This document shows positions 10,862 to 25,835 of a stretch of 64,000 nucleotides of DNA, one piece after another. A model generated the notes under the pieces. The model had not been told where the DNA came from and searched no databases. It was given only the letters and a program-made list of their open reading frames with translations. This stretch comes from an uncultured Gemmatimonadaceae bacterium (lineage in GTDB: Bacteria; Gemmatimonadota; Gemmatimonadetes; Gemmatimonadales; Gemmatimonadaceae). Within the stretch, counting starts at the first letter, position 1; every line of letters starts with the position of its first letter. The translations under genes and the position numbers were made by a program. The stretch lies in assembly GCA_963761305.1 (NCBI GenBank), contig CAVXGK010000002.1:224001-288000 (forward strand). The letters run 5' to 3'.

Positions 10862-11540
10862 GTGCGAACCATGGCGCTCGCGCAGCTTGCGTGTCTCGCT
10901 CGTCACCGCGAGTAGGCCCGCGAAGACGCGCCTGTGGTGATGCACGCGGCACCGGGCCCGCCGCCGCCATCGCGCTATTTTCGCCGCCCACCGCGGATAT
11001 GCGCCCGGTCTCCTGGCCCACTGTCGCGCGCGCGCCACGCCGCGCGATGTTTGATCGTCACCGCCCGACGTTTTGTCGCCATCTGCTCGAAGCCACTCGT
11101 CGACTGCCCGCGTTCAGTCGACGCACGACCGCCCTCATTGCGCGTAGCCCAGCCGCAGGTGCCCGACGGACCATGCGTCGCTCGCCGCAGACCGCGGGAC
11201 CGCGATCCGCTCCCGACCGCAATCCACATTTCAACACCGGAAAGCGCGACCACACCGGATCTGGCGAGCGATGCTCACCGCGGTGTCGGCCCATTCCGCG
11301 GCGGCGGCCTCGAGGACTCATCGATCGCTCGCCACGGACCGCCGAAAAACGACCGATCACCGTCCAGCCGGAGCGCGGGATGAAGTAGACGCCGCGCCAA
11401 CCCGCGGCGCGTCGTCAACGGACCGAACTACGCGCCACAAGTGTTGCGAAGACGCAGCAAAGGATCGAACTCTGTGAGCGAACGACCGAACTCACTGAGC
11501 TAACGACCGAACTCCGTCGTCGTCAGACCGCGTTCGCGTC

Positions 11541-12780
11541 TCAGATGTACGCCTGCTCCCCGTGCAGCGATTCGTCGAGCCCGACCGCTTCGTCGGCCTC
11601 TGTGACCGTGACCGGCGTGATGGCTTGGATCGCCGCCAACATCCCGTACGTGAAGATGGCCGCGTAGGCGGCCGCTCCGATGACGGCGAGCGACTCCTTC
11701 ACGAAAAACGCCGAGTTGCCGTGCAGAAGGCCGTCGGCCCCGCCATCCGGGTTCACCGCCTTCGTCGCAAAGATCGCCAGTGCGAAAACGCCGAGCATGC
11801 CGCCCACGCCGTGCACGCCCCAGACGTCGAGCGCGTCGTCCCATTGCATTTTGTTCTTGAGCGAAATGGCATAGTAGCACACGACGCTCGCGGCGATGCC
11901 GATCAGGATCGCCGTCGAGGTGGTCACGTAGCCGGCGGCCGGCGTGATGGCCGCCAGTCCCGCGATCGAACCGGTGAGCAGGCCGAGGAACTTCGGTTTC
12001 CGCTCGTAGGTCCAGGCCAGCGCCAGCCACGTCACCGCGGCGAAGGAGGCGGCGACGTCGGTGTTGAGGAACGCGAGCGCCGTGACCGAATCGACTTTCA
12101 GCTCGCTGCCGGCGTTGAATCCGTACCAACCGAACCAGAGCAGGCCCGTGCCCAGCGCGACGAGCGGAATGCTGTGCAGCCCCGCGTCGGGGACTCGGCG
12201 GCGGCCCGACGAAGAACACAGCGGCCAGCGCCGCAAACCCCGCCGTGGCGTGGACCACGATGCCGCCGGCGAAGTCGAGGACTCCATGTGCCTGGAGGAT
12301 CCCGCCGCCCCAGACCATGTGGGCGACCGGGAAGTACACAAGCAGCAGCCACGCCACGAGAAACAGCAGATACGCCTTGAAGGTCACGCGATTGGCGAAC
12401 GCGCCCGTGATGAGGGCCGGCGTGATCTGCGCGAACATCATTTGATAGGCGATGAACACGATGAGCGGAATCGTCGGCGAGCCGGCAAACGGCGTGAACG
12501 GATCGACGCCGCGGAAGAATGCCAGGTTGAAGTTGCCGATGATGCCGCCGATGTCGGGATTCGTCGCGCTCTGATAGCTCCCGCTGAACGCCATCGAGTA
12601 GCCGCAGACGACCCACAGCACCGTCGTCACGCCCATCGAGACGAAGCTCTGCAGCATGATCGTGAGGACGTTCTTGCGTCCGACGAGGCCTCCGTAGAAA
12701 AACGCGAGGCCGGGCGTCATGAGCATGACCAGGCTCGTCGAGACCAGCATGAACGCGATGTTGCCGGTGTCCCAGTGCAT
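11541..12780 (-). CDS. amt: Ammonium transporter; frameshift near 12205
   Basis: LVMLMTPGLAFFYGG, DFAGGIVVH in 11500..12780; LWFGWYGFNAGS, GLAAITP, DDALDVWGVHG, GLDESLHGE in 11541..12341. Confidence 0.93.
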
Positions 12781-12985
12781 CCTCTCCCCCGGTTTTTTGT
12801 GTTGTGAGCCGAGGGGAAAGTGACCGCCTTCCGATCGCCCGGCTAGTCGGCGCCCAGGAGGTGCTGGACAACGGTGTTACCGACAGCCACGATCACCAGG
12901 ATTGCCGCGTTACCCGAGGGCGTCACAGGTCGTCGCTGGACGCGCCCCCGCGCGAGTGAGCGAGCGACCGGAGACGACCCTGATA

Positions 12986-14489
12986 TTGGACACGACTGCG
13001 ATCGTCATCGGCGCGGGCCCCGCAGGGCTCACGGCCGGTTATCTCCTCGCCAAGGCCGGCGAGCCTGTCGTCGTCCTCGAGAGCGATCCGGAGTACGTCG
13101 GCGGAATCTCGCGCACGGCCGAGCACAACGGCTTCCGATTCGACATCGGCGGACATCGGTTCTTCTCGAAATCCGCCGAGATCGAGGCGTTGTGGACCGA
13201 GCTGCTCGGGGATGAGCTGCTTCAACGCCCGCGGCTCTCACGGATCTACTACAAGAAAAAGTTTCTCGCCTATCCCATTCGCGCCGGCGAGGTGTTGCGG
13301 AAGCTCGGACCCATCGAGGCGGCGCTCGCCGTGGCCTCGTATCTCCGAGCCCGGGCGTTTCCCATCGCGAATCCGCAGTCGTTCGAAGACTGGGTGACCA
13401 ACCAGTTCGGCGAGCGGCTGTATCGCGCCTTCTTCAAGACCTACACCGAAAAGGTGTGGGGCATGAGCTGCCGAGACATCTCGGCCGATTGGGCCGCGCA
13501 GCGAATCAGCGGACTGTCGCTCGCGTCGGCGGTACGACAGGCGCTCTTTCCGCCGCGAGCCGGGAAGAACTCCGCCGGCACGATCAAGACGCTGGTCACG
13601 TCGTTCCGCTATCCGCGGTTCGGGCCGGGCCAGATGTGGGATCGCTGCCGCGACAGAATCGTGGAGCACGGCGGCCAGGTCCTGCTCGGACATCGCGTGA
13701 GCGGCTGCCACTATCTCGGACCCGACGCCGGCTGGGAAGTCACTGCTCGCGACGCCCACGGCGACGAGCACACGTTCCGGGCTCCTCACGTGATCAGCTC
13801 GGCCCCGATTCGTGAGCTGGCGCGCATGATCTCGCCGGCGGTGCCGGCGCGCGTGCTCGCGGCCACCGACGCGCTCAAGTATCGCGACTTTCTCACCGTC
13901 GCATTGATGATGAAGGATCGCACGAACCTGCCGGACAACTGGATCTACGTCCACGATCCCGTCGGTGCGCGTCGGCCGGATTCAGAACTTCAAATCGTGG
14001 TCGCCCGATCTGGTGCCGGATCCGTCGATGGCCTGCTACGGCCTGGAATACTTCTGCTTCGAGGGCGACGGGCTGTGGACGTCCCGCGACGAGGAGTTGA
14101 TCGCGTTGGCCGCTCGCGAGCTCGCCGAGCTCGGACTCGGGTCGCCGGAGGACGTGCGTGACGCGTGCGTCGTCCGGCAACCGAAGGCGTATCCCGTCTA
14201 CGACGCCGACTACGCCGGGCACGTGGCGACGTTCCGAACGGAGCTCGCCGCCAATTATCCCGATCTGCATCTCGTCGGCCGCAACGGCATGCACAAGTAC
14301 AACAATCAGGATCACGCCATGATGACGGCGATCCTGACGGCCAGGAACATCCTGGCCGGGTCGCCTGTGTACGACCCGTGGCGAGTGAACCAGGACGCCG
14401 AGTATCACGAGTCCGGTGCCACGGATATCGAGACGGGCGGTCGCGCCGTTCCACGACCCTTGGCAGCGGCAGCCATACCGTCAGCGTGA
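12986..14489 (+). CDS. NAD(P)/FAD-dependent oxidoreductase (HemY/UDP-galactopyranose mutase-like family); frameshift near 13960
   Basis: VIGAGPAGL, FDIGGHRFFSK, KTYTEKVWG, WIYVHDP then GRIQNFKSWS, KAYPVYD, GRNGMHKYNNQDH; TTG start inferred. Confidence 0.85.
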
Positions 14490-16437: not shown

Positions 16438-17040
16438 ATGACGTTCCAGTCCGAGATGAGCGACGCGCTGCGCGCGCGGCTCACGACGGTGTGCGTCGAA
16501 GGGTGGACCCTCTGGGATCGGTTCGACGACGAGGTGCGCACGCACCACTTCCATCCCTTCGTGGCGGCGGAGTACGATTCCGTCGTCGACGCATTGATGC
16601 GGCACCGCGGCCCGAATCTTCGATTTCTCGAGTGGGGCGCGGCGACCGGAGTCATCACCATCATCGCCGATCTCCTGGGGTTCGACGCCTACGGCATCGA
16701 GTTGGATCGCGACCTTGTCGCGACGGCGCGCGATCTCGCGAAGAGGTTCGACTCCCGCGCCAAGTTCGTCGCGGGAAGCTTCATGCCGACGGGATACGTG
16801 TGGCGGCCACCGGACGGAGACGGACGTACCGGCACGTTGGGATCGGGGGTGTCGGGCTACCGCGAGCTCGGCCACGCCCTGGATGAATTCGACGTGGTCT
16901 TCGGGTATCCGTGGGATGGAGAGCGCGACCTCATGCTCGACCTGATGAACCGCTACGGCCGCGCCGATGCGACGCTGCTGCTGAACCACGTCAACGACGG
17001 AGTGGTGGCGTATCGTGGCGGGCGCATCGTCGACGCGTGA
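16438..17040 (+). CDS. Class I SAM-dependent methyltransferase-like protein
   Basis: FLEWGAATG motif I, AYGIELD motif II, FDVVFGYPW. Confidence 0.72.
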   Translation: MTFQSEMSDALRARLTTVCVEGWTLWDRFDDEVRTHHFHPFVAAEYDSVVDALMRHRGPNLRFLEWGAATGVITIIADLLGFDAYGIELDRDLVATARDLAKRFDSRAKFVAGSFMPTGYVWRPPDGDGRTGTLGSGVSGYRELGHALDEFDVVFGYPWDGERDLMLDLMNRYGRADATLLLNHVNDGVVAYRGGRIVDA

Positions 17041-18527
17041 CGCGCCTCGCCGACGTCGCGGTGATTGGAGGCGGGCCGGCGGGATCATCGGCCGCCCGCC
17101 TTCTCGCGTCGTGGGGGCAGTCCGTGATCGTGCTCGCGCGTGCGCCGCGACAGCCGCCGCTGGCTGAGTCACTGCCGCCGAGTTGCGTGAAGCTGTTCGA
17201 CGAGATCGGAGTGCGGGCGGCAATCGATCGCGCCGGATTCATTCGCGCCACGGGCAACACCGTACACTGGGCCGACGGCGCCCGACGCGTCGAGATGTTC
17301 GACCAAGCGGGGCTCGGATATCAGGTCGTCCGCGATCGATTCGACGAGCTGTTGCTCGACGGCGCGCAGGCGGCCGGCGCGTCGGTGGACCGTGACGTCT
17401 CGGTGCGCGAGGCGGAGCGCGAGGGCGATTTGTGGCGCGTGCAGATCGACCGCGCGGACAACGGTGCCGCGGAAACAGTGCGCGCGCGATGGCTTCTCGA
17501 CTGCAGTGGTCGGGCGGGCGTGATGGCCCGGCGAGGTTGGCGGCGCACGGAGTCCGCGGCGCGAACGATTGCTGTCGCAGGCGTATGGGAACGATCCGGC
17601 GCCTGGCCGCTCGAGGACGCGACGCACACGTTCGTGGAGAGCTACGAGAACGGATGGGCCTGGTCGATCCCCGTGTCCGCATCGCGCCGGTTCGTCACGG
17701 TGATGCTCGATCCGCGCGTGACGACGTTGCCGGGTCGATCGGAGCTCGCCGCCGCGTACCACGCTGAGATCGCGCGCGCGACGGCGCTGCGTACTCTCAT
17801 AGACGGCGCAACGATCGTGGATGCGCCCTGGGCGTGCGACGCCACGCCGTACTCGGCGACCCGCGTTGCCGGCGACGGAGTGCTGCTCGTTGGCGACGCC
17901 GCGTCGTTCGTCGATCCGCTGTCGTCGTTCGGCGTGAAGAAGGCGCTGGCCTCGGCGTGGCTGGCGGCGGTCGTCGTGCACACCGCGCTCGTCGACCCCG
18001 CGACGACCGATGCAGCGCTCGAGCTGTTCACCGCGCGCGAGGTCGCGATGGCCGAGCATCTGCGGCAGGGAGCGGCGGCCCTCGCGCGCGACGCGGCGGG
18101 CGCGCACGAGACTTCGTTCTGGTCCGCGCGAGCCGATCGAGACGCGTCGCCGCCGAGCGACGAGTGGGATGTCGACGCGCTGCGTACGGACAAACGCATC
18201 CAAACAGCGTTCGAGGATCTGAAGCGGCAGCCGGTCTTGCGGCTGCAACTGGCCGGCTCGCTCGAGTTCGTCCGCCGGCCGGTCGTACGCGGCCATCGCA
18301 TCGCACTCGAGGAGCACCTGTCGGCGCCGACGTCTGCGAACGCCGTTCGGTACTGCCGCAACGTCGATCTCGTGGTCTTGGCGCGCCTCGCTCCGGAGTT
18401 CGAGCAGGTGCCAGACCTCTTCGACGCGTACAACCGCGCCGCCGGCCCCGCGCCGCTCCCGGACTTCCTCGGCGCGCTGTCGACGCTCGTCGGATTCGGC
18501 ATGCTCACTGCGGCAGACGGCGCTTGA
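17037..18527 (+). CDS. qhpG: FAD-dependent monooxygenase, QhpG-like (CTQ biogenesis)
   Basis: DVAVIGGGPAG, ESLPP, RDRFD, LDCSGR, GWAWSIP, VGDAASFVDPLSSFGV, C-terminal extra domain; directly upstream of qhpA. Confidence 0.82.
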   Translation: MTRLADVAVIGGGPAGSSAARLLASWGQSVIVLARAPRQPPLAESLPPSCVKLFDEIGVRAAIDRAGFIRATGNTVHWADGARRVEMFDQAGLGYQVVRDRFDELLLDGAQAAGASVDRDVSVREAEREGDLWRVQIDRADNGAAETVRARWLLDCSGRAGVMARRGWRRTESAARTIAVAGVWERSGAWPLEDATHTFVESYENGWAWSIPVSASRRFVTVMLDPRVTTLPGRSELAAAYHAEIARATALRTLIDGATIVDAPWACDATPYSATRVAGDGVLLVGDAASFVDPLSSFGVKKALASAWLAAVVVHTALVDPATTDAALELFTAREVAMAEHLRQGAAALARDAAGAHETSFWSARADRDASPPSDEWDVDALRTDKRIQTAFEDLKRQPVLRLQLAGSLEFVRRPVVRGHRIALEEHLSAPTSANAVRYCRNVDLVVLARLAPEFEQVPDLFDAYNRAAGPAPLPDFLGALSTLVGFGMLTAADGA

Positions 18528-18543
18528 CGGCTTGACGTCTACA

Positions 18544-18589
18544 CCACCGGTCCACCGGTCCACCGGTCCACCGGTCTACCGGTCCACCG
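18544..18589. repeat. Octamer tandem repeat (CCACCGGT/CTACCGGT) x~6
   Basis: Read directly in the qhpG-qhpA spacer. Confidence 0.9.
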
Positions 18590-18590
18590 C

Positions 18591-18619
18591 TTGACAGCAT
18601 CGGGGCCGGGGCGTATCCC
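18591..18619 (+). promoter_or_regulatory. Possible sigma70 promoter upstream of qhpA
   Basis: TTGACA-N17-TATCCC; the -10 element is weak. Confidence 0.35.
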
Positions 18620-18667
18620 GTAGGGCACCTGGGAGCGTGTCACTTCCACCCCAAGCACCTTCAGGTC

Positions 18668-20425
18668 ATGTCGCGTCGACTGTTCGTCGCTCCATCGCGC
18701 GTTTGGCTCGCCGTAGGACTTCTCGCCTGGGCAGGCTCCGCGCACGCTCAGCGTGGCGGCGGAGGAGGCGGCGGCCGAGGTCGGGGCGCCGCGGCAGGAA
18801 CGGGCGCGGCCGCGGCGGATACGACGACTGGCTTCGTGATTCGCGACGTGACGACGCGGACGCGTTGCCAAAGTTGTCATCAGCGCGACTCGGCGGGCAT
18901 GCTCCAGCGCATCTCGTACGAGCGCAAGACGCCCGAAGGTTGGGAGATGACCGTGCGGCGCATGGTCGCGCTCAACAACGTCAAGCTGGAACCGGCCGAC
19001 GCACGCGCGATCGTGCGGTATCTGAGCGACAACCAGGGACTCGCACCGGCCGAGCTTCGACCGGGACGGTTCGAGGTCGAGCGTCGGACGATCGAGTATC
19101 GGTACACGGCGGATACCCGCACCGAAACGACCTGTCGCGCGTGTCACTCGATGGGGCGCGTGATCACGCAGCGTCGCACGCGGGGCGAATGGGAGCTGCT
19201 CGTCGCCACGCATCGCGCGCTCTATCCGGACGCCGACTTTCAGGCGTTCCGGCGCGGCGGCCCGGCGACGAACGACAGCGGAGCGGCGGTTCCACATCCG
19301 ATGGACGTCGCGATCAACCATCTCGCCCGCACGTTCCCGCTGCGGACGCCGGAATGGGCCGCCTGGTCGGCGACGATGCGGCCGCCGCATCTCGAGGGCA
19401 CGTGGTCGCTCAGCGGCAGCGAGCCCGGTCGCGGTGCGTTCTATGGAAGGATGACGGTCACGCGCGGCGCCGGCGATGGCGAGTTCGTCACCCAGGCGAC
19501 GTATCGCTACGCCGACGGCGGCAAGGTCGTGCAGCGCACCGGAAAGTCGATCGTGTACACCGGTTTCCAGTGGCGTGGCCGCTCGACGGATCCGGCGCTC
19601 AAGGCGACGGACACGGTCGGCCTGCGCGAGGTGATGTTCGTCGAGCCGGGCTGGGAAGAGATGTCCGGCCGCTGGTTCACCGGCGGCTACGACGAGGTCG
19701 GGATGGACGTGTCGCTCAAGAAGCTCGGCGCGAATCCCGTGCTGCTCGGCGTGGCGCCGCACGCGGTGCGCGTCGGAACGCGGGGCCAGGACGTCACGAT
19801 CTTCGGCGCGAATCTCCCGAAGAACATCGCGGCGACGGGCGTCGACTTCGGCCCCGGGGTGACGATCGAGCGCGTCGTCCGCGCGACACCGGACTCGATC
19901 ACCGTGCGCATGAACGTCGACTCGGCGGCGGTCATCGGCAAACGTGATCTCTACGCCGCCGGCGTGTCGCTGCGCGACGGCGCTGTCGTCTACGATCAGA
20001 TCAACCGCATCAAGGTCGTGCCGCTGGCCGGTCTCGCGCGCGTCGGCGGGAACGTCTTCCCGAAACAGCTCCAACAGTTCGACGCGATCGCCTACTACAA
20101 CGGACCCGACGGCAAACCGGACACCGACGACGATCTCGAGATCGGCCGCGTGAACGCCACCTGGTCGCTCGAGGAATACGGCGTCACGTACGACGACGAC
20201 GACGTGAAGTTCGTGGGCGCCGTCGACCAGACGGGGCTGTTCACGCCGAACGTCGACGGTCCGAATCCTCAGCGCAGCGCGAACCGCAACAACGTCGGCG
20301 ACGTGTGGGTCGTCGCGACGTATACACCCCCAGGCAAGTCGCCTCGCCCGCTGCGCGCTCGCGCGCAGCTCGTCGTCACCGTGCCGCTCTACATGCGGTT
20401 CGCACCCTGGAAAACGCAGCCATGA
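18668..20425 (+). CDS. qhpA: Quinohemoprotein amine dehydrogenase alpha subunit (diheme c)
   Basis: Signal peptide; CQSCH...RISYERKTPEGWEMTVRRM; CRACH...QRRT..EW; ARVGG, GLFTP..GPNP.R...NNVG, LVVTVP. Confidence 0.95.
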   Translation: MSRRLFVAPSRVWLAVGLLAWAGSAHAQRGGGGGGGRGRGAAAGTGAAAADTTTGFVIRDVTTRTRCQSCHQRDSAGMLQRISYERKTPEGWEMTVRRMVALNNVKLEPADARAIVRYLSDNQGLAPAELRPGRFEVERRTIEYRYTADTRTETTCRACHSMGRVITQRRTRGEWELLVATHRALYPDADFQAFRRGGPATNDSGAAVPHPMDVAINHLARTFPLRTPEWAAWSATMRPPHLEGTWSLSGSEPGRGAFYGRMTVTRGAGDGEFVTQATYRYADGGKVVQRTGKSIVYTGFQWRGRSTDPALKATDTVGLREVMFVEPGWEEMSGRWFTGGYDEVGMDVSLKKLGANPVLLGVAPHAVRVGTRGQDVTIFGANLPKNIAATGVDFGPGVTIERVVRATPDSITVRMNVDSAAVIGKRDLYAAGVSLRDGAVVYDQINRIKVVPLAGLARVGGNVFPKQLQQFDAIAYYNGPDGKPDTDDDLEIGRVNATWSLEEYGVTYDDDDVKFVGAVDQTGLFTPNVDGPNPQRSANRNNVGDVWVVATYTPPGKSPRPLRARAQLVVTVPLYMRFAPWKTQP

Positions 20426-21841
20426 TGCAGCTCCGGCGCGGTGAATATCACAGCTTTAGCGGTGGCGACGCGCGCTTTCTATACCTCGTGCCGTCGGCCG
20501 CTGTCGTGCGGCTCGACGACGTCGCCGAGGCCGTCCTCGAGACGCTGGCCGACGGAGATCGCACGGCGACCGAGCTCGCCGAGTCGCTCTCGACGCGGTG
20601 GGGTCCAGAGGTGATCCGCTCGTCGATCGATGAGTTGCTCGGCATGCGCGCGATTCATACGGTCGCGGCGCCGCCGCCCAAACCGGTTGCGGAGAAGCCC
20701 AAGCGACGCATTCCGCTCCAGACGCTCGTGCTCAACGTGACGAGCAAGTGCAACCTGTCGTGCGGCTACTGCTACGAGTACGGCGAGGATCGCATCGTCG
20801 AAGCCGCGAGCAAGCCCCGCTTCATGAACGAAGAGACGGCTCGGCAAAGCGTCGACTTCATGTTCAGCGAGGCGGGCGACTCGCCGGCGGTGAACTTGAC
20901 GTTCTTCGGCGGCGAGACGCTGCTCAACTTCAAGATGCTGAAGTCGGCGCTCGCCTACGCGCGGGAGCGCGCCGAGCCGTTGGGCAAGCAGGTGAACGCC
21001 AGCCTCACCACGAACGCGACGCTGTTGCGCGAAGAGATCATCGACTGGATCGTCGAGAACGACGTGGGCGTCACTGTGTCGATCGACGGCGCCAAGGAGC
21101 AACAGGACAAGTTCCGCGTCTTCGCGAACGGCATGGGGAGCTACGACCTCGTCGTGCCGAACATCAAAGAACTGTTACGCCGCCATCGTCGTCGCCCGGT
21201 CGGCGCGCGAGTCACGCTCACGGGACAGAATCTCGACGTCACCTCGATCTACCGGCACCTGTACGAGGAGCTGGGCTTCTGGGAAGTCGGCTTCGCGCCG
21301 GTGACCACGTCGTGGCAGCGCGAGTATGCGATCGAGGACGAGGGATTCCGGCAGCTGCTGTCCGGTTTCCAGACCCTCGCCGCCGACTATCTGAATGCGG
21401 CCCTGGCGGGCCGCCGTCATGGATTCTCGAACGTGCGCGATACGCTCGAGGAGATTCACAAGGGCATGAGCAAGGCCTATCCGTGCGGCGCCGGCCTCGG
21501 CCTCATGGGCGTGGCCACCGACGGCGACGTCGCGCTCTGCCACCGCTTCGCCGGATCGGACACGCACAAGCTGGGCACCGTGTTCGACGGCATCGATCAT
21601 TCGCGTCAGGACGACTTCCTGATGAAGCACCACATCGCCAACAAGACTGATTGCTCCACGTGCTGGGCGCGTCCGCTGTGCGCGGGCGGCTGCTATCATG
21701 AAGCACACACGCGCTACGGCTCGACCGTGGAGCCGAACCTGCACTACTGCGAGTGGATTCGCGCCTGGACGAACACCTGCCTTGAGATGTACGGCGTTCT
21801 CGCCGACAGAGAAGCCCGAGTTCCTGGCGCAGTTCGATTAA
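20422..21841 (+). CDS. qhpD: Radical SAM/SPASM thioether-forming maturase; frameshift in the last codons near 21810
   Basis: CNLSCGYC, FFGGE, TTNATLL, SIDG, CGAG...CHRF, CSTCWARPLCAGGC; N-terminal PqqD-like region; corrected end KPEFLAQFD*. Confidence 0.93.
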
Positions 21842-21878
21842 TCGTCCACCGTCCACCTGTCCACCCGTCCACCCGTCC

Positions 21879-22208
21879 ATGCGACACCTGACGCCGATCA
21901 ATCAAAAGGCTCGCCGGATCGAAGCGACGATCGAGAACGACGTCGTCGCGCTCCAGCAGGGCGGGCCGCAAAACGCGCCGCACGTCCCACTCGGCTGCAC
22001 GTTCGTCTTCTCGCCGGGATGGGAGGTCGACTCGAGCGGCGGCACCGCGGGTCTGTGCCAGCCGGTGGAACGCGATCTGTTCGACTGCCACCTCACGTGC
22101 TTCTGGCCGGCGCAGGTGCCCGATCTGTACAACTACGCCCCGGATTGGACAGGGAAGTGCGCGTCCGCGCAGAAGGACTGGCGCAAAATCGACCTCATCT
22201 TCCCATGA
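21879..22208 (+). CDS. qhpC: QHNDH gamma subunit precursor (CTQ-bearing peptide)
   Basis: Leader MRHLTPINQKA...DVVAL; GC..F.PGWEVD, LCQP.E.DL..C...C.WPAQVPD, DWRK motifs. Confidence 0.96.
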   Translation: MRHLTPINQKARRIEATIENDVVALQQGGPQNAPHVPLGCTFVFSPGWEVDSSGGTAGLCQPVERDLFDCHLTCFWPAQVPDLYNYAPDWTGKCASAQKDWRKIDLIFP

Positions 22209-23336
22209 GACACGCGTTTCGCACCGCCGCCGCGCTGATCACGCTTGTCGCGCTGGCGCCGCTCGGCATCGCCGCGCAGGCGCCGAGGCTCGCGTCGGCC
22301 GACCCGATTCCGTCCGGCGGCGACGGCAGCATCTACGTCGGCACGTACGCGCGCAACATCCTCGTCCTCGACGAGGCGACGATGCGCGTGCGCGACACCC
22401 TGCACACGTCGGTCGGCATTCCCGAGATCTCGCTCTCGTTCGACAGGAAGCACCTCTACGTAACCGATCCCGGCGACGAGAAGGTCGAGATTCTCGACCT
22501 CGCCACGAAGCAGTCGCTCGGCATGTTCACGCTGTCGCACGACAGCGTGAAGGTGCGCATGAACGGATTCAGCCTCGACCCGATGGAGCGCTTCGCCATC
22601 ATTTTGGTGAAGATCTACACCAAGCATCGTGACCGGTACGAGGTGAGCCGCCCCACGCTGCTCCGCTACGATCTCGCGAAGCGTGAGGTGACGGACACGA
22701 TCGCCTGGCCGCGCGGCGAAGAACGCGAGTTCGCCCAGATCATTTTCGCGCCCAAGGGCGACCTGATGTACTTCTTCACGCAGGACGACGTGTTGATCTA
22801 CGACTCCAACACGCTCAAGCAGGTCGATCACTGGGACATTTCGCGGACGCTGTTCGAAGAAGGCCTCGGCCGCATCAACTTCGGACTGCCGTACGACGTC
22901 TACGAGGAGCCGGGCTTCTACACGGGTCTCTTCCGCACCAACGATCCGGTGAACCACCGCACGCAAATGGGCGTCGCCCGCATGGATCTCGCGAACCGCC
23001 AGCTCGACTTCTATTCGCTCGGTCCGCAGCCAGGCGGTGAGCTTCCGACTCGCTCCGGATCGCAAGCGTGCCTATGGCATCCACAGCGAGGTCGGCAACT
23101 ATCAGTTCTGGACGTTCGATCTCGAGTCGCGCCGCGTGCTCGGCAAGACGGAGTTCCCTGGGCGGCCGCGCATGGGGCTCGTGGTCAGCTCCAACGGCAC
23201 GCAGCTCTACATCACGACAGCCGGGAGCACGATCGACCGGTTCGCGACGCAGGGCTTCGAGCGTCTGGGAACCGTGAACCTCGGGGCGGACATGACAAAC
23301 GTCATCTTGGTCCCGCGTGCGGCTGCCGCGAGATAA
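22205..23336 (+). CDS. qhpB: QHNDH beta subunit (beta-propeller); frameshift near 23030
   Basis: Signal peptide; YncE-type repeats (SFDRKHLYV, APKGDLMYF, APDRKRAY, SSNGTQLYI); ATGA overlap with qhpC. Confidence 0.85.
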
Positions 23337-23371
23337 CAAGTGAGTGCGGTGTACGGAGTGCGGAGACGAGC

Positions 23372-25124
23372 CTGCCGCGATTTTCGTTGCTAGACAGAGA
23401 TCTCAAGCGCGCGCTCAGCTACGTCACGCCGCACTGGAAGCGGCTCGCGTTGGTGCTGGCGCTGTCGCTCATCAGCACCGTCGCCGCGCTGTACATCCCG
23501 TACCTCTCGCGACTGCTGATCGATCGTGCGCTGCTCGGGCGCGACAGCGCGGCGCTCGTCAGGATCATTCTTCAGTTCACCGTCCTCACGCTCGGCAGCT
23601 TCGCGCTCAACGTCGTGAGCGGCCTGGTGTACACACGTGCGTCGGCCGAAATCCTGTTCGAGATGCGGCTCGGCCGTGTTCCGTCAGTTGCAGCGGCTGT
23701 CGCCGAGGTTCTTCGCGAACATGCCGGTGGGGCAGATCGCGACGCGACTCAATGCGGACATCGGCGAGATCCAGCGCGTGGCCGCCGAGATCGCGCTCGC
23801 CTGGTTGGGCAACGTGATCTTTCTCGTCGGCAGCGTGATCATCCTCTTCCGACTCGACCGCACGCTCTTTCTGGTCAGCTTCGCGCTGCTGCCGCTCGCG
23901 CTGTGGGCGCTCGTGCGATACCGCTCGCGCATGGAGACGGCCGTCGCGGGCGTCCGCGACAGAAGCGCCGACGTCGGCAGCTACCTGATCGAAGCCCTGC
24001 TTGGGATGAAGGTGATCGTGGCGTTCAACGCGCAGGAGCGCGAAGCGTCGCGGTTTCGCGCCAACAACGACGCCTTCATCGATGCGCTGATGTCGATGCG
24101 CCGGCTGACCTATCTCTCCGGCGGCGTGCCGGGATTGCTGCTGTCGGCCGGGAGCGCGTTGGTGTTCCTCGTCGGCGGCATGCGCGTGATCGACCACACG
24201 ATCACGATGGGCACGCTGGTCGCGTTCGTCGCGTATCAAATGCGGTTGGTCTGGCCGATCCAGGCCCTCATGGGATTGTACGCCAGCCTCGCGTCGGCGC
24301 GCGTATCGCTCAAGCGCGTCAGCGAGATCCTCGACGCGCCCGTGGACGTCGTCGAGTCACCCGCAGCTGTGGCGTTGCCCTCGGCGCGCGGGCGTATGAC
24401 GCTCGAACATGTCACGTACGCGTTCGGCCGCGGCGGACCGGTGCTCGACGGCGTCTCGCTCGACGTTTCGCCGGGCGAATGCGTCGCGATCGTCGGACGC
24501 AGCGGCGAAGGCAAGTCGACGATCGCCGATCTGCTCGTGCGACAGCTCGACCCGGAGAACGGGCGCGTGCTGCTGGACGGCGTCGACCTGCGCGCGGCGC
24601 GACTGGCGGACATCCGTCGGCACGTGCTAGTGGTGGATCAAGATCCGTTCGTGTTCAACGCGACGCTCGCCGAGAACATTCGCTATGCGCGACCAGGGGC
24701 CAGCGACGCCGACGTGCGCGCCGCGGCTGACTCGGCCGGCCTAGGTGCTCTTCTCGCGCGCACTCCGCGCGGGCTCGACACGAGCGCCGGTGAACGCGGC
24801 CGCGCGCTGTCGGCCGGCGAGCGCCAGCGCCTCGCGATCGCGCGCGCATTTCTCGCCGACCCGGCCGTGTTGGTGCTCGACGAGGCGACGGGAGCGTTGG
24901 ATCCGGCCACCGAGGCGCAGGTCGCCGCAGGCTACGAAGCCGTGATGGCCGGCCGCACGACGATCCTCATCACGCACCGGCTCGAGCTCGCGCGCCGCGC
25001 CGACCGCGTGCTCGTGCTCGCGCGCGGCCGGATCGTCGAGGAGGGAACGGCCGCGACGCTGCTCGGCCTCGGGCAATCGTTCGCCAGCCTCTTTTCGGCC
25101 GGCGTGTTGGCCCAGACGCTCTAG
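23372..25124 (+). CDS. qhpF: ABC exporter (TMD+NBD); frameshift near 23670; start uncertain
   Basis: TM domain; GRSGEGKST, LSAGERQR, LVLDEAT, ITHR; position in the qhp operon. Confidence 0.85.
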
Positions 25125-25127
25125 CCC

Positions 25128-25835
25128 GTGCGCTTCACGTTGGCGGACACACCATTTGCCGGACGCACCGGCCGCGGAGTGACCGTCGCGCTTCTCGACA
25201 GCGGCGTGCACGGCGACCATCCGCACGTGGGCGGCGTGCGAGGTGGAACGTCGTTTCTGCCCGGTAACAACGCCAGCGATTTCGTCGATCGCGTGGGTCA
25301 TGGGACGGCGGTTGCGGCGGCGATTCGCGAGAAGAGTCCCGCGGTCGACCTCATTGCCGCGCGAATCTTCGACCGGCAACTGGCGACGAACGTCGACGTC
25401 CTCGTCCAGGCGATTTGCTGGGCGGCCGATGAAGGCGCGCAGCTGATCAACCTCAGCCTGGGCACGACGAATCCCGCGCACGCCGAAAAGCTCGGGCCGG
25501 CGGTGAGCTACGCCGCGGAGCGGGGCTCGATCGTCATCTCGGCGCGGGAGTGGAACGGCACCACGTGGCTGCCGGGCAGTCTCGCCGGAGTCGTTGGCGT
25601 GGTGGCCGACGCCGAGCTGGATCGCGACGAAATCGATGTCACCACGGCGGGCGACCAGCTGCCACACTTCAAGGCGGCGCCGTTCCCGCGACCGATTCCC
25701 AACGTGCCTCGCGAGCGGAATCTCTCAGGTGTGTCGTTCGCGGTCGCGAACGTGACGGGCTTCCTGGCGCGAGCGACCGAAGCGTGCGGCGATCCGTTCA
25801 GCGCGGCGGCATTTGCACGGCGTTCGACGGTGTGA
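25128..25835 (+). CDS. qhpE: Subtilisin-like S8 leader peptidase
   Basis: VALLDSG, GHGTAVA, INLSLG, LSGVSFAV catalytic triad motifs; no signal peptide. Confidence 0.88.
   Translation: MRFTLADTPFAGRTGRGVTVALLDSGVHGDHPHVGGVRGGTSFLPGNNASDFVDRVGHGTAVAAAIREKSPAVDLIAARIFDRQLATNVDVLVQAICWAADEGAQLINLSLGTTNPAHAEKLGPAVSYAAERGSIVISAREWNGTTWLPGSLAGVVGVVADAELDRDEIDVTTAGDQLPHFKAAPFPRPIPNVPRERNLSGVSFAVANVTGFLARATEACGDPFSAAAFARRSTV

Follow-up and report, generated by a model that had tools for sequence, protein, structure and literature searches.

In the stretch of DNA analysed here (64,000 nucleotides from an uncultured Gemmatimonadaceae bacterium, called the window below), the gene for the gamma-subunit precursor of QHNDH encodes one Cys more than the crystallised enzymes contain, which raises the question of whether this residue, C94, stays free, pairs with another Cys, or is joined by the maturase QhpD in a further thioether. 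The gene, qhpC (21879–22208, + strand; 109 amino acids), was identified from its ORF, which matches NF037958 in NCBIfam (130.7 bits; cut-off, 50) and PF08992 in Pfam (116.4 bits; cut-off, 25), and from alignment, in which residues 38–109 correspond without gaps, at an offset of 33, to residues 5–76 of 1JMX chain G and 1JJU chain C. An earlier note, made from the letters alone, had mapped the residues of this protein, and because the alignment to both solved gamma subunits is gap-free, its mapping proved exact. The three canonical thioether pairs and the CTQ residues fall where it had placed them (all on the + strand): C40–E49 (21996–22025), equivalent to C7/E16; C60–D66, a C-x5-D pair (22056–22076), equivalent to C27/D33; and, within 22086–22124, the CTQ precursors C70 and W76 (C37/W43) together with C74–D82 (C41/D49). 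The additional C94 lies six residues before D100, as it had said; the two form a candidate fourth thioether, C94-x5-D100 (22158–22178, + strand), nominated by its conservation among QhpC cores, in which the TGC codon at 22158–22160 stands at Ala61 and the GAC codon at 22176–22178 at Asp67.

The window protein resembles QhpC of Paracoccus denitrificans (1JJU/1PBY, chain C) and Pseudomonas putida (1JMX/1JMZ, chain G) in its canonical Cys residues and their partners, in the equivalent of D67-W68, in a leader with N-x-K-A and [DE]V-x-A, and in an operon with qhpA, qhpB, qhpD, and genes like qhpE, qhpF, and qhpG. Unlike these proteins, it carries Cys61, Phe for Trp42 (F75, 22101–22103, the Phe that the earlier note had placed beside the CTQ Trp), Ser for Asp12 (S45, 22011–22013), Asp for Gly36 (D69), and Leu for Asp39; the changes at Asp12 and Gly36 were additional to those noted before. 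It also has nine more residues before the first Cys: the segment between DVVA and C40 (21951–21995, + strand) comprises 15 residues, a variable Gly/Pro/Gln linker followed by a conserved PH[IVFY]P[LM]G, as against the usual six (six to seven in 66 four-Cys loci), and the excess of about nine first reported is thus borne out. The predicted leader (residues 1–24 of qhpC, + strand) ends at DVVA by analogy with the model enzymes, whose gamma subunits have a 28-residue leader according to the accessible parts of PMC7876137; the leader motifs are kept among relatives, and the cleavage site is placed by inference only. The first Cys is just five residues further from the start than in the Paracoccus loci, because the window leader is shorter. 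Three residues before it lies P37 (21996 minus 9), at a position where six of seven five-Cys clades have Pro as their consensus residue and the four-Cys clade has Val.

The gene lies in a qhp cluster ordered G-A-D-C-B-F-E, an order that differs from those of Paracoccus and P. putida, with all members on the + strand within 16911–25835. Upstream of qhpC are a qhpG-like flavoprotein monooxygenase gene (16911–18527; NF049967, 239.3 bits against a cut-off of 240; start uncertain), qhpA for the di-heme alpha subunit with two CxxCH motifs (18668–20425; TIGR03908, 481.8 bits, above the cut-off), and qhpD for the radical SAM/SPASM maturase (20422–21841; TIGR03906, 524.5 bits; cut-off, 453). Downstream, the start of qhpB (22205–23336) overlaps the stop of qhpC (ATGA), and the gene encodes a divergent beta-propeller subunit with G-R-P-R-M where the four-Cys enzymes have H-[TS]-Y-Y; it is followed by a qhpF-like ABC exporter gene (23384–25124; assigned from general ABC families and synteny, start approximate) and a qhpE-like subtilisin protease gene (25128–25835; NF049966, 146 bits; cut-off, 165). 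QhpG and QhpE score below their cut-offs, as does the intact qhpB relative L007 (53 bits on TIGR03907; cut-off, 223), which marks this clade as divergent. QhpB proteins of the clade with Phe or Tyr at position 42 (the F/Y clade), to which the window belongs, gave no phmmer match to the solved beta chains, whereas Paracoccus QhpB matches them with an E-value of 4e-146. The closest loci to the window cluster come mostly from Gemmatimonadaceae MAGs. The maturase has an extra Cys at residue 453 counted from 20422 (approximately 21778–21780), ten residues past the last SPASM Cys, which is found in 118 of 119 F/Y-clade QhpD proteins and in none of 35 other five-Cys and 58 four-Cys ones. The spacer between qhpD and qhpC (21841–21878) contains short GTCCACC-type repeats, with similar ones near 18530–18580.

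Single extra bases set the window apart from three close relatives: one at the end of qhpD (21809–21811, where the last few codons are shifted), one in qhpB (at about 23027), and one in qhpF (at about 23672–23673). Contigs lacking these bases were found among four soil runs (in two runs at 21811, three at 23027, and three at 23672) in a comparison of low depth between strains 90–99% alike, and the three insertions are likely consensus or assembly errors. The genes for an ammonium transporter (11500–12780) and a flavin-dependent oxidoreductase (12902–14489) also look split across overlapping frames, which fits scattered indel errors in the assembly. One soil-run contig covers all of qhpC, with six differences and no gap.

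The fifth Cys is a family-wide feature and is not peculiar to the window gene. Of the 121 closest proteins, 120 have C94 and the remaining one is truncated; the CTQ precursors C70 and W76 occur in all 121. For wider sampling, a 50%-cluster search was combined with a profile built from eight divergent matches and a DNA pattern scan, the last of which contributed 121 loci, including many four-Cys genes that it had picked up in the wrong frame. The resulting 667 sequences yielded 460 unique intact cores with the N-terminal and CTQ motifs; seven without the tail DW (truncated or frameshifted) were left out and 453 were scored. A tail Cys upstream of the Asp was found in 331 of these and in none of the other 122, a ratio that is not a family frequency, because the sample is biased toward five-Cys forms, and that, like the conservation of the E49, D82, and DW columns, arises partly by construction, since E49 and D82 were demanded by the extraction patterns and DW and the Cys codon by the DNA pattern scan. 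DW was nevertheless present in all of the scored closest and profile-search loci, which were not selected on it.

The position of this Cys is fixed relative to the acid. It lies six residues before the Asp in 312 cores and seven before it in 19, with no other upstream tail Cys, and an Asp or Glu occurs at C+6 in all 331 five-Cys cores, the acid being Glu in the 19 with the longer spacing; in the Binatia-type group with spacing 7, Glu precedes the Asp in 17 of 17. The distance from D82 to the fifth Cys does vary (12 in 323 cores, 11 in seven, and 18 in one), so the indels fall before the Cys. Both the Cys and DW were invariant in eight cores of just 35–58% identity to the first core. With C94 in 120 of the 121 closest proteins and at a fixed position in the tail, sequencing error or chance was rejected as its source. 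According to the lineages in the database records, five-Cys loci occur in Gemmatimonadota, Acidobacteriota, Bacilli (Bacillota), Thermodesulfobacteriota, Binatota, Myxococcota, and some Beta- and Gammaproteobacteria; 71 of the 73 four-Cys loci belong to Pseudomonadota. Gram-positive qhp operons were reportedly surveyed by Nakai in 2014, who may have noted the extra Cys.

Several variants of QhpC turned up in the same sampling. Some Binatia-type (L231, L232, and L233) and Bryobacteraceae (L090 and L132) genomes contain two qhpC paralogs, both of the five-Cys form. In the 557-residue protein P0260, a very divergent QhpC-like N-terminal domain is fused to about 450 further residues; the C41 equivalent is absent and C-x5-D-W is kept. 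One QhpC clade (DLFGTTDMYCWW; P0173, P0356, and P0362 and L172, L197, L213, and L258) has Thr at the CTQ cysteine C37 and, despite this change, retains the remaining three canonical Cys as well as the fifth; it may bear a different tryptophylquinone cofactor.

What, then, would C94 be joined to? The reading to which we assign a probability of about 0.65 is that QhpD installs a fourth thioether between C94 and D100, a link that is likely ancestral and was likely lost in the proteobacterial branch of the crystallised enzymes. The earlier suggestion of such a link is partly supported by the comparison, in which the Cys–acid spacing is fixed across distant clades and a conserved disulfide partner is lacking. 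Among 232 unique cores from genome loci, the only columns acidic in every row were E49, D66, D82, and D100 (E49 and D82 being subject to the selection described above), whereas D51, E64, D69, D89, and D105 were each non-acidic in at least one five-Cys clade. The joint conservation of C94 and D100, which the earlier note had proposed as a check, held in all 331 five-Cys cores, if the acid at C+6 is counted, but this check has little power to discriminate, since 122 of 122 Cys-less cores have D100 as well. D100-W101 is in fact invariant in all of the latter, so this motif has another role and its conservation is non-specific; Glu at the same position is common in the four-Cys sister group too, and the Binatia Glu at C+6 may just be inherited. 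An AlphaFold2 model from a 65-sequence alignment (pLDDT 52.6, pTM 0.21) was too poor to judge the C94–D100 geometry; at this low confidence, it has a short helix after C60 and another after C94. The only QHNDH structures found, 1JMX/1JMZ and 1JJU/1PBY, all have four-Cys gamma subunits.

The alternative that C94 remains a free, probably buried thiol, serving in packing or in a transient iron–sulfur contact within QhpD, with three thioethers in the product, appears unlikely. It accords with the conservation of D100 regardless of the Cys and with the replacement of the Cys by Ala or Val throughout a functional branch to which the crystallised enzymes belong: of 68 Cys-less forms, 42 have Ala and 22 have Val at position 61, and Ala61 occurs in both crystallised gamma subunits. 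A packing Cys should, however, drift to Ser, Ala, or Val, and only one of 214 F/Y-clade cores lacks it; the Cys is also kept across clades in which the neighbouring residues differ widely, and a free conserved thiol is unusual in an exported subunit.

We consider it very unlikely that C94 is cross-linked elsewhere, to D105, D69, D89, or W101. Within the F/Y clade, D105 and D69 never vary, and W101 is invariant throughout the family, but D105 is replaced by Lys, Gln, or Asn and D69 by Gly or Ser in other five-Cys clades, D89 varies, and all three known QhpD links run from a Cys to an Asp or Glu six to nine residues downstream. As for QhpA and QhpB as sources of a disulfide partner, an alignment of 204 QhpA rows contained no conserved Cys beyond the two CxxCH motifs and one of 228 QhpB rows no Cys column common to the five-Cys loci, the highest non-heme Cys column in either subunit reaching 17 of 127 in the F/Y clade and 12 of 41 in other five-Cys loci. 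Least probable is a disulfide linking C94 to another subunit, to a second gamma chain, or to an outside partner, which would suit a periplasmic enzyme and the many QhpA and QhpB ORFs with some non-heme Cys (none in just seven of 143 five-Cys loci, a raw count to which the column-level counts are preferred because extracted ORFs may begin too far upstream), but which is opposed by the lack of a shared Cys column, by the window proteins themselves, in which QhpA has only its four heme Cys and QhpB, in either piece, none, and by the NPGYE clade, which keeps C94 though it lacks the C70 equivalent.

If the C94–D100 thioether is formed, its maturation would extend a known pathway. In the model enzymes, according to the accessible parts of PMC7876137, PMC8172795, and PMC11951088, QhpD forms three thioethers from Cys to Asp or Glu one after another, Trp43 is dihydroxylated by QhpG, the leader is cut off by QhpE, and the peptide is exported by QhpF. 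Their CTQ arises in the periplasmic alpha–beta–gamma complex. By analogy, the window QhpD would bind the leader and form C40–E49, C60–D66, and C74–D82, and would then close C94–D100 as an S-Cbeta ring equal in size to that of C60–D66. QhpG would hydroxylate W76, QhpE would remove the leader, QhpF would export the peptide, and CTQ would form in the periplasmic alpha–beta–gamma complex. The fourth ring, probably structural in its role, would staple the C-terminal helix. The system resembles the ranthipeptides freyrasin (PapB) and thermocellin (CteB) in combining a radical SAM/SPASM maturase, a leader-bearing peptide, and S-Cbeta rings between Cys and Asp, as described in the accessible parts of PMC11002830; the window QhpD also matches NF047865 (285 bits, below the cut-off of 340) and 5WGG. 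Unlike ranthipeptides, QhpC matures into an enzyme subunit that carries a quinone cofactor and not into a free peptide, and its rings span i+6 to i+9. Neither a fifth Cys nor a fourth QhpD link was found in the accessible parts of PMC7876137 and its supplementary files, PMC13692751, PMC8172795, PMC11951088, and PMC11002830, a scope that leaves out the main primary papers; where PMC8172795 uses the phrase "four thioether", the passage on QhpC, as far as accessible, counts three QhpD links plus CTQ.

On a FastTree phylogeny of QhpA and QhpD from 192 loci (137 five-Cys and 55 four-Cys), the Cys label changes only once, with support of 100, as against a mean of 48 changes when labels were shuffled. 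In QhpD trees rooted on SCIFF maturases (46 and 26 hand-picked rows; quick-search tree), the four-Cys branch was nested inside five-Cys lineages, where it joined Binatia and two more loci of the five-Cys kind (SH-aLRT 99). These trees favour a loss of the fifth Cys in the proteobacterial four-Cys branch, and favour is the most that can be said, because only a quick tree was used and the AU test retained the alternative rooting, in which the five-Cys forms are one clade (p = 0.118).

The remaining peculiarities of the window protein belong to its clade. W42F, D12S, and the long N-terminus define an Acidobacteriota/Gemmatimonadota clade independently of C94. The segment from DVVA to the first Cys comprises 12–19 residues in 129 of 130 F/Y-clade loci and 26 in one, as against six to seven in four-Cys forms, Binatia, and Bacilli and 11–15 in a separate clade. 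Position 42 is Phe or Tyr in 213 five-Cys cores and Trp in 118, of which 89 also have Asp12, which led us to reject any link between C94 and W42F, D12S, or the long N-terminus; the short N-terminus of the Bacilli and Binatia five-Cys forms argued separately against a tie to the last.

A difference in substrate, which the earlier note had also raised, concerns this clade. Asp12, Trp42, and Tyr298 of the beta subunit presumably line the QHNDH substrate pocket. The accessible parts of PMC7876137 describe Asp12 as a surface acid and Trp42 as docked in a QhpG pocket, and cite a catalytic role for Asp33, whose equivalent is kept in the window QhpC as D66. In QhpB of the F/Y clade, two positions are Arg (in 120 and in 123 of 126 rows) where the four-Cys enzymes have H-[TS]-Y-Y, a segment that holds Tyr297-Tyr298 in P. 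putida, and the window QhpB likewise has R-x-R for H-x-Y-Y. F75, S45, D69, and the Arg-x-Arg of QhpB would then be separate, clade-level changes that likely alter the pocket. It is plausible from these residues that the F/Y-clade substrate differs from that of the model enzymes; that it is an anionic amine is a guess read from the two QhpB arginines, which might instead be paired with acids of the gamma subunit. The composite scenario, in which four thioethers are ancestral, three are derived, and the F/Y-clade pocket was rebuilt (D12S, W42F, and beta R-x-R) for an amine with an anionic group (an amino acid or aminosulfonate, for example), seems doubtful.

Clustering of the gene neighbours of 130 F/Y-clade loci and the window yielded no common substrate gene: an outer-membrane barrel was the most frequent neighbour (22 loci), followed by lineage-specific genes, and the window fell into none of the top 25 clusters. 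Genes of the U32 family adjoin the qhp genes in 10 F/Y-clade loci (L155:5236–6711 and nine others, mostly in Blastocatellia and Bryobacteraceae). As a separate observation on QhpB, a Cys pair occurs in 50 of 60 four-Cys QhpB proteins (e.g., L204, L226, and L238) and in no five-Cys one; it is possibly a disulfide gained in the branch without C94.

The type of thioether chemistry considered here is already known, and the fifth Cys is a conserved feature of a known family. In the accessible parts of reviews and a primary paper, QhpC is described with three QhpD thioethers; if C94–D100 forms, this count would describe only one branch of QhpC, and the QhpD proteins of other phyla would be natural four-ring peptide cyclases. 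The F/Y clade is common in soil Acidobacteriota and Gemmatimonadota, and its substrate therefore bears on soil nitrogen turnover.
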